From an uncultured Verrucomicrobiota bacterium (GTDB lineage Bacteria > Verrucomicrobiota > Kiritimatiellia > CAIQIC01 > Lenti-01), in NCBI GenBank assembly GCA_937872095.1, contig CALMNW010000014.1, positions 112,799-176,798 of the forward strand: a DNA stretch of 64,000 nt, read 5' to 3'. The notes under the pieces are model-generated. The model ran no database searches. It was not told where the DNA came from and saw only the letters and a list, made by a program, of their open reading frames with translations. Shown in pieces: positions 21,963-22,052 of the stretch; position 1 is the first letter of the stretch, and every line of letters starts with the position of its first letter. A program made the translations under genes and the position numbers.

Positions 21963-22052
21963 ATGGGTTCCGTCAAAAAGAAACGCCGCTTGAAGATGGC
22001 CAAGCACAAACGCCGTAAACGTCTGCGCGCCGACCGTCACAAGAAGAAATAG
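21963..22052 (+). CDS. Small basic ribosomal protein bS22-like (29 aa)
   Basis: ATG preceded by AGGAGG at -8. Encodes [29 protein letters not shown], closely resembling mycobacterial bS22 ([23 protein letters not shown]...). Hand-translated codon by codon, TAG at 22050-22052. Below the ORF-track length cutoff. Confidence 0.7.
   Translation: [29 protein letters not shown]

Follow-up and report, generated by a model that had tools for sequence, protein, structure and literature searches.

The open reading frame at positions 21963 to 22052 of the plus strand is very probably a translated gene for the ribosomal protein bS22 in a Kiritimatiellia-type bacterium of the PVC group, whose product, judged by homology, would reside in the 30S subunit. 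Positions are those of the window, i.e. the whole 64-kb stretch of DNA that was analysed. The gene is preceded by hisG and followed by a gene for a TPR-repeat protein, and the features of this region are the following:

21054..21926, plus strand: hisG, encoding ATP phosphoribosyltransferase, long form (TIGR00070 170 bits and the C-terminal domain model TIGR03455 98 bits, both over their cut-offs)
21949..21954, plus strand: Shine-Dalgarno AGGAGG, 8 nt before the ATG of the bS22 gene
21963..22052, plus strand: probable bS22 gene, with ATG at 21963 and TAG at 22050-22052 (29 codons and TAG)
22083..24008, plus strand: gene for a 641-aa TPR-repeat protein with a signal- or lipoprotein-like N-terminus (TPR family matches, all under equivalog cut-offs)

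Position, composition and family of the peptide

The original prediction had placed a 29-codon bS22 gene at this position, with an AGGAGG ribosome-binding site and downstream of hisG, and the reading frame, its translation, the motif 5' of the ATG and the gene order were all found as it described, the hisG TAA ending 36 nt before the ATG. The in-frame sequence 5' of this ATG is a spacer that holds the Shine-Dalgarno motif. As computed from the sequence, the peptide is 59% Lys and Arg, with a pI of 12.0 and a net charge of about +16; its length and composition lie within what characterizes bS22, namely about 27-33 aa and extreme basicity. The reading frame has a G+C content of 52%, compared to 63% for the 64-kb window, and its seven Arg codons are all CGC or CGT. 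An antisense reading frame of 734 aa (21942..24146, minus strand) covers the TPR gene entirely and overlaps bS22, and was discarded as an artefact of GC-rich DNA, the plus-strand TPR gene beneath it having strong family matches. Many other long overlapping reading frames are present on both strands of the window, as is typical of DNA with 63% G+C.

Comparison with curated models gave a clear match to Pfam PF08213 (COX24_C), which is the C-terminal domain of mitochondrial mS38: the peptide scored 32.1 bits (gathering score 23; E 1.1e-7; model positions 1-29 of 33), and all 20 peptide variants encoded by its relatives also scored above this gathering score. The NCBIfam equivalog model for bS22, NF047430 (ribo_bS22), gave 21.1 bits with the peptide, below its cut-off of 34 bits, and was matched by all 20 variants (best E 3.4e-7), each of them under the 34-bit cut-off. 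The HMM comparison proposed as a check was therefore passed with PF08213 (32.1 vs 23) and failed with NF047430 (21.1 vs 34). This failure is weak counter-evidence, because Bacteroidota bS22 proteins proven by cryo-EM do not match the model either. Among the controls, actinobacterial bS22 reached about 58 bits with NF047430 and about 38 with PF08213, whereas the bS22 of F. johnsoniae (7jil_5) matched neither model and that of P. gingivalis (9i5v_10) gave no NF047430 match and only 8.5 bits on PF08213 against the gathering score of 23. NF047430 and PF08213 describe the actinobacterial/mitochondrial subtype and not bS22 as a whole, and failing NF047430 means "not the actinobacterial subtype" and not "not bS22".

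Structural databases pointed to the same family. With the single peptide as query, the top match in the PDB was F. johnsoniae bS22 (7JIL chain 5, E 5e-4), and further matches were the bS22 of P. gingivalis (9I5V), of mycobacteria and of C. acnes; E-values to individual chains ranged from 5e-4 to 0.26, which is modest and unavoidable at 29 residues. A clade profile built from the 20 peptide variants of relatives (A1) was then compared with the whole PDB, and its nine best matches were all bS22 or mS38 chains, from M. smegmatis, F. johnsoniae (7JIL), P. gingivalis (9I5V), C. acnes (8CRX) and mitoribosomal mS38. The 9I5V chain was identified as P. gingivalis bS22 through PMC12123416. No PVC ribosome chain of the bS22/mS38 family was found in the PDB by this clade profile search.

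Short, highly basic peptides may resemble each other by composition, and a similarity limited to Lys/Arg bias had been named in advance as a finding that would speak against the assignment; the shuffle controls gave no sign of such a limitation. In ungapped, in-register alignments the peptide is identical to F. johnsoniae bS22 at 19/29 positions, to P. gingivalis at 17/27, and to M. smegmatis and C. acnes at 16/27 each, as compared to a mean of about 6 for shuffled sequences, and 0/20,000 shuffles attained the observed values. A profile made of the four solved bS22 sequences only gave the peptide 45.6 bits, against 13.9 bits for the best of 5,000 shuffles, and no COX24_C match was obtained with any of 9 shuffled or reversed peptides. 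At the level of the sequence, the similarity is thus position-specific and not compositional, since no shuffle attained the observed scores or identities. Lys16 is invariant in the 20 variants and stands in register with Lys16 of M. smegmatis, C. acnes and F. johnsoniae. Membership of the peptide in the bS22/mS38 C-terminal family is supported by these sequence comparisons, and the bS22 identity originally proposed is borne out by the PF08213 score over threshold and by the nine best PDB matches being bS22 or mS38 chains.

Conservation, coding signature and gene order

The search for conservation was anchored on hisG and not on the peptide, so that the short reading frame was not presupposed and circularity was avoided. 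It was based on the best 80 hisG relatives, with hisG identities from 97% to 71%, among bacterial and archaeal contigs representing one genome per species; the relatives fetched were MAGs labelled Verrucomicrobiota, Kiritimatiellia/Kiritimatiellae, Lentisphaerae or Candidatus Spyradenecus, all belonging to the PVC group. One locus (L026) ends inside hisG and was left out, and 79 of the 80 loci were therefore testable. A six-frame profile search revealed a bS22 copy in 79/79 of these loci, exactly one in each, on the hisG strand and just after the hisG stop, and also exactly one copy in the window itself. The reading frame thus occurs in every testable relative, which disposes of the lack of conservation foreseen as an argument against the gene, and the adjacency of hisG and bS22, suggested as a check, is kept throughout. 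The gap between the two genes, measured in 37 copies, is 32-76 nt.

Several features of the 80 copies (79 loci and the window) are those of a coding sequence. Start codons are GTG in 44 copies, including L029, L032-L040, L042-L056, L058-L064 and others, and ATG in 36. A Shine-Dalgarno-like motif (AGGAG, AGGAGG or GGAG(G)) lies 4-10 nt before the start in 80/80 copies, though the remaining spacer has diverged. The bS22 relatives are 28-31 aa long, and 16 residues are invariant across the 20 peptide variants. Among 71 distinct DNA versions, the variable columns number 12, 8 and 26 of 28 at first, second and third codon positions, respectively, and the pN/pS ratio, summed over pairs, is 0.185. 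In two relatives (L012 and L016), 5-6 synonymous changes and zero non-synonymous ones separate the bS22 reading frame from that of the window. The exact 29-aa peptide is encoded in 15 fetched species-representative MAGs in addition to the window, and the 40 nt flanking bS22 on each side show mostly near-random identity in ungapped comparison. Because of its universal presence, its Shine-Dalgarno motifs, the predominance of synonymous substitutions and the randomised flanks, the bS22 reading frame is, on comparative sequence evidence, a translated gene under purifying selection.

These data leave practically no room for a chance reading frame in GC-rich DNA whose likeness to bS22 would be Lys/Arg richness only. 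Such an origin could be suspected from the 59% of residues that are Lys or Arg and from a window of 63% G+C that is full of spurious long reading frames on both strands, but the observed scores and identities were out of reach for every shuffle, the 52% G+C of the reading frame in a 63% G+C genome is contrary to non-coding drift, and divergence in the 79/79 loci is dominated by synonymous changes between randomised flanks. A chance origin was therefore rejected on the basis of the shuffle controls and of the conservation in 79/79 loci.

With regard to gene order, the succession of hisG and bS22 (79/79 loci) is the steadiest part of the neighbourhood. The TPR gene begins 30 nt past the bS22 stop, and a TPR homologue is located downstream on the same strand in 46/72 testable loci, a linkage weaker than that of hisG and bS22; the membrane-protein gene found upstream of hisG in the window has a same-strand counterpart in 6/62 related loci. 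A distant homologue of bS22 (L081, 4001-4162) follows a UvrD/PD-(D/E)XK helicase-nuclease gene and not hisG, and the hisG-bS22 linkage is specific to the Kiritimatiellia/Verrucomicrobiota clade. Both hisG and the TPR gene are context for the small gene, and hisG is not part of its ribosomal function. No terminator-like or sigma-70-like site was detected on the plus strand between hisG, bS22 and the TPR gene, bearing in mind that PVC promoters may differ from this consensus; the 36-nt gap and the lack of consensus signals provide weak evidence that makes co-transcription of bS22 with hisG plausible. Further features of the window are:

18860..20944, plus strand: 694-aa open reading frame with a hydrophobic, membrane-protein-like translation (no NCBIfam match at E <= 1e-5)
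24094..25845, plus strand: 583-aa open reading frame with a MurU-like nucleotidyltransferase (residues 18-234) and an AmgK-like kinase (residues 311-573), below equivalog cut-offs
48775..48849, plus strand: tRNA-Gly(CCC), the sole Rfam or ARAGORN match in the 64-kb window

This arrangement also bears on whether translation of the reading frame, and not its product, could be what matters, as in a regulatory uORF or leader peptide for the TPR gene or an attenuator of the his pathway. Its shortness, its position 36 nt after hisG and 30 nt before the next gene and the lack of a terminator separating the three genes would suit a leader peptide; this explanation is nevertheless highly improbable, since purifying selection acts on the amino-acid sequence itself (pN/pS 0.185, 16 invariant residues among 20 variants), the TPR gene accompanies it in 46/72 loci only as against 79/79 for the reading frame, and the distant homologue lies elsewhere, after the helicase-nuclease gene. 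An attenuator is further contradicted by the two His codons, which are non-adjacent, by the location of the reading frame downstream and not upstream of a his gene, and by the lack of an adjoining plus-strand terminator-like structure or Rfam element. The Rfam scan of the 64-kb window detected no RNA element at the bS22 region and no rRNA.

Two observations concern the neighbouring genes themselves. In the list of open reading frames, hisG starts at TTG 20925 (333 aa), the stretch 20925..21053 of the plus strand being an extension; the ATG at 21054 is the likelier start on sequence grounds, because the alignment to the hisG model begins at residue 4 of that version. The product of 24094..25845 (plus strand) combines an N-terminal region resembling a sugar-1-phosphate nucleotidyltransferase with a C-terminal one resembling an N-acetylmuramate/GlcNAc kinase, and is apparently a fusion of the two enzymes that make up the MurNAc recycling bypass.

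Expected role in the ribosome and relation to known bS22 types

The bS22 of mycobacteria, C. acnes, Bacteroidota and Borrelia forms a bent helix, which lies buried beside the decoding centre in a pocket that h2, h27, h44 and h45 of the 16S rRNA create; its C-terminus contacts H68/H70 of the 23S rRNA (PMC10618245, PMC7797042, PMC12123416). The 29-residue peptide with its charge of +16 would likewise fold into a bent alpha-helix in the h2/h27/h44/h45 pocket next to the decoding centre, where its Lys and Arg side chains may neutralise rRNA phosphates, and its C-terminus could reach the 23S rRNA (H68/H70) to form an extra intersubunit bridge. A structural, charge-neutralising and bridge-forming role is thus expected by analogy with the homologues, and residence of the peptide in the 30S subunit of this organism is what we infer from its sequence. 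In M. smegmatis, the only species whose structure has provided this contact, Lys-16 of bS22 contacts the h44 backbone, and deletion of bS22 yields viable cells that are more susceptible to kanamycin (bioRxiv 10.1101/2023.03.31.535098). Lys16 of the peptide, being invariant and in register with the M. smegmatis residue, may therefore be expected to shape the aminoglycoside-binding pocket. Kiritimatiellia ribosomes, and probably those of many PVC bacteria, would then count as having a 30S protein that is absent from E. coli and has the decoding centre and the aminoglycoside site as its neighbours.

A conserved basic COX24_C protein does not have to be a constitutive ribosomal component, and the product might serve as a ribosome-associated factor under specific conditions, as an assembly chaperone or as a general RNA-binding peptide. 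The location of the gene after the biosynthetic hisG, and not in a ribosomal-protein operon, would fit such a role, as would the survival of M. smegmatis without bS22, which is not universally indispensable (bioRxiv 10.1101/2023.03.31.535098). We regard this possibility as unlikely: the bacterial members located by experiment, in M. smegmatis/M. tuberculosis, C. acnes, F. johnsoniae, P. gingivalis and B. burgdorferi, all occupy the same 30S pocket (PMC10618245, PMC7797042, PMC12123416), the alignment with ribosomal chains is colinear over the full length and includes Lys16, and purifying selection is very strong, with a strong Shine-Dalgarno motif in all copies. Less probable by far is an antimicrobial peptide or small toxin, a cationic product that would be secreted or toxic and happens to resemble bS22. 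The product is indeed small and strongly cationic, but it has no signal peptide and no hydrophobic or amphipathic segment, its gene has no antitoxin, immunity or export gene next to it, its homologues are located inside ribosomes, and a single copy is conserved over a class-level clade in place of a patchy distribution. A bS22 protein of the 30S subunit thus remains the favoured reading.

Comparison with the known members shows the putative bS22 of the window to be significantly similar to two established types. The bS22 of Bacteroidota (Fjoh_1533, 7JIL chain 5; P. gingivalis 9I5V), of 30 aa as compared to 29, aligns with the peptide colinearly and without gaps over its full length, and both have an HK+KR core and a C-terminal RHKKK motif. 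Its helix lies between h44 and h45 and contacts H70 of the 23S rRNA (PMC7797042, PMC12123416), and the same role is expected here. It differs in its N-terminus, which reads MPSGKKR, in contrast to the MGSVKKK of the window peptide, which is of actinobacterial style, and in remaining under the PF08213 threshold that the window peptide exceeds; moreover, Bacteroidia ribosomes ignore Shine-Dalgarno motifs (PMC7797042), whereas the window gene has a strong one. With actinobacterial bS22 (M. smegmatis/M. tuberculosis 5O5J/5O61/5V93; C. acnes 8CRX; NF047430), the peptide shares the N-terminal half MGSV.KKRR.KM.K.K and a Lys16 that lines up with the residue contacting h44 (Lys-16); the actinobacterial protein has 33 aa and is thus four residues longer than the 29 aa of the window peptide, which differs from it in the C-terminal half (LLRRTRVQ in Actinobacteria).

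The relation to mitochondrial mS38 (Cox24/AURKAIP1) is one of domain. Both have COX24_C, and the mS38 chains 6XYW and 9EVS were among the PDB matches, whereas mS38 is a protein of 128-137 residues or more with an N-terminal extension, to which the window gene corresponds in the C-terminal domain only; the window gene is, in addition, bacterial and equipped with a Shine-Dalgarno motif. Identity with full-length mS38/Cox24/AURKAIP1 was rejected, the long N-terminal region (>100 aa class) being missing from a reading frame of 29 codons, and the database name "AURKAIP1/COX24 domain-containing protein" refers to the domain and does not imply orthology. In the mitoribosome, mS38 occupies the equivalent pocket (PMC10618245). 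The bS22 of Borrelia burgdorferi (bb0822) offers a parallel of another kind, as the annotated genome lacked it, its content of Lys and Arg is about 61%, and it escaped tryptic bottom-up mass spectrometry and starts with GUG (PMC10618245), as do the 44/80 copies with GTG reported above; it was located by cryo-EM density, whereas the window peptide is known from sequence alone. At E <= 1, the PDB matches of the clade profile included neither a Borrelia bS22 chain nor an eL41 chain. Eukaryotic eL41 is likewise a very short, very basic single helix, which occupies the corresponding pocket of the small subunit and makes bridge eB14 (PMC10618245, PMC12123416). Its resemblance to the peptide would, by this analogy, be structural and positional only.

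To our knowledge, the Bacteroidota and actinobacterial subtypes of bS22 have so far been joined in the literature by structure only. The F. johnsoniae study termed its protein a "structural homolog" (PMC7797042), and in the study of P. gingivalis convergent evolution was speculated for the likeness of bS22 to mS38 and eL41 (PMC12123416). Direct comparison of the two subtypes reveals no detectable similarity in sequence: the F. johnsoniae and M. smegmatis proteins share 8/27 residues in register, which about 10% of shuffles attain, and hhalign of the Bacteroidota pair (A2) against the actinobacterial pair (A3) gave a probability of 10.7% over 8 columns. The clade profile A1, in turn, aligned with the Bacteroidota pair at a probability of 97.2% over 29 columns and with the actinobacterial pair at 96.8% over 25 columns. 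This double affinity is reflected in the two halves of the window peptide, the N-terminal one being identical to the actinobacterial type at 10/14 positions and the C-terminal one to the Bacteroidota type at 10/13. Two sequences were used per comparison subtype, and the pairwise E-values are those of single comparisons. The PVC sequences thereby appear to offer sequence-level support for a common ancestry of the two bacterial subtypes, which is to be taken as a lead and not as a result. Whether bS22 of the PVC type represents, in its sequence, a "missing link" between the Bacteroidota type and the actinobacterial/mitochondrial bS22/mS38 type is, in our estimation, an evenly balanced question. 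If a broad survey proved this true, all bacterial bS22 proteins and the C-terminus of mS38 would form one ancient family and would not be convergent, and bS22 would be far more widespread in Bacteria than NF047430 and PF08213 can detect. As both of these curated models miss the structurally proven bS22 of Bacteroidota, a profile seeded with PVC sequences, which recognises both subtypes, would be usable for rebuilding a cross-phylum bS22 model, and this model could address whether bS22, mS38 and possibly eL41 have a common ancestry.

Annotation status

The gene had been described as lying below the length threshold of gene callers and as belonging to a class that is routinely missed. The first statement is overstated, given that relatives of 28-29 aa, with 86-97% identity, have been deposited after being called by the NCBI, JGI, ENA and Logan pipelines. 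The search that revealed them used the peptide padded with 11 in-frame spacer codons as query, a padding that lowers the coverage figures only. The second statement holds in part: the exact 29-aa peptide is absent from a collection of 15 billion proteins despite being encoded in 15 MAGs, yet relatives of it have been called. Gene callers can thus find the gene, but they do so erratically and never under the name bS22. At NCBI, relatives such as MBR3583402.1, HNR93982.1 and HIV09315.1 bear the name [quoted passage not shown], a Pfam-derived naming explained by NF047430 covering the actinobacterial subtype. We are dealing with an ordinary, often-missed gene, and near-identical relatives of it can already be found in databases, where their name says less about what they are.

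Other calls are too long. Those of P0001, P0002, P0009, P0016, P0019, P0022 and P0026 comprise 40-64 aa, with a wrongly extended N-terminus and the conserved peptide starting at an internal Met, P0002 being an over-extended call of 53 aa. The GTG start is a likely reason for missed or mis-started gene calls. In this respect, the Borrelia study predicted bS22 in further bacteria and stated that shortness and GUG starts defeat annotation (PMC10618245). The practical meaning of the present case is an annotation fix, and a ribosome specialist would not be surprised by it, the Borrelia study having foreseen more cases. A paper linking bS22 with Verrucomicrobia or Planctomycetes was not found in the searchable literature, where the papers retrieved were irrelevant and used BS22 as the label of a strain or sample; an M. 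smegmatis bS22 sequence that was possibly inexact as a query gave no match in the protein collection.

The titles of several related records deserve mention. The contig of L072 (CAVJWR010000050.1) is titled "Limosilactobacillus gorillae" despite a hisG that is 71% identical and a bS22 of Kiritimatiellia type, the records of L012, L019 and L057 have titles with implausible or inconsistent taxon names, and "Lentisphaerae bacterium" appears on close relatives. Such titles suggest bin contamination or an outdated classification in public MAGs.
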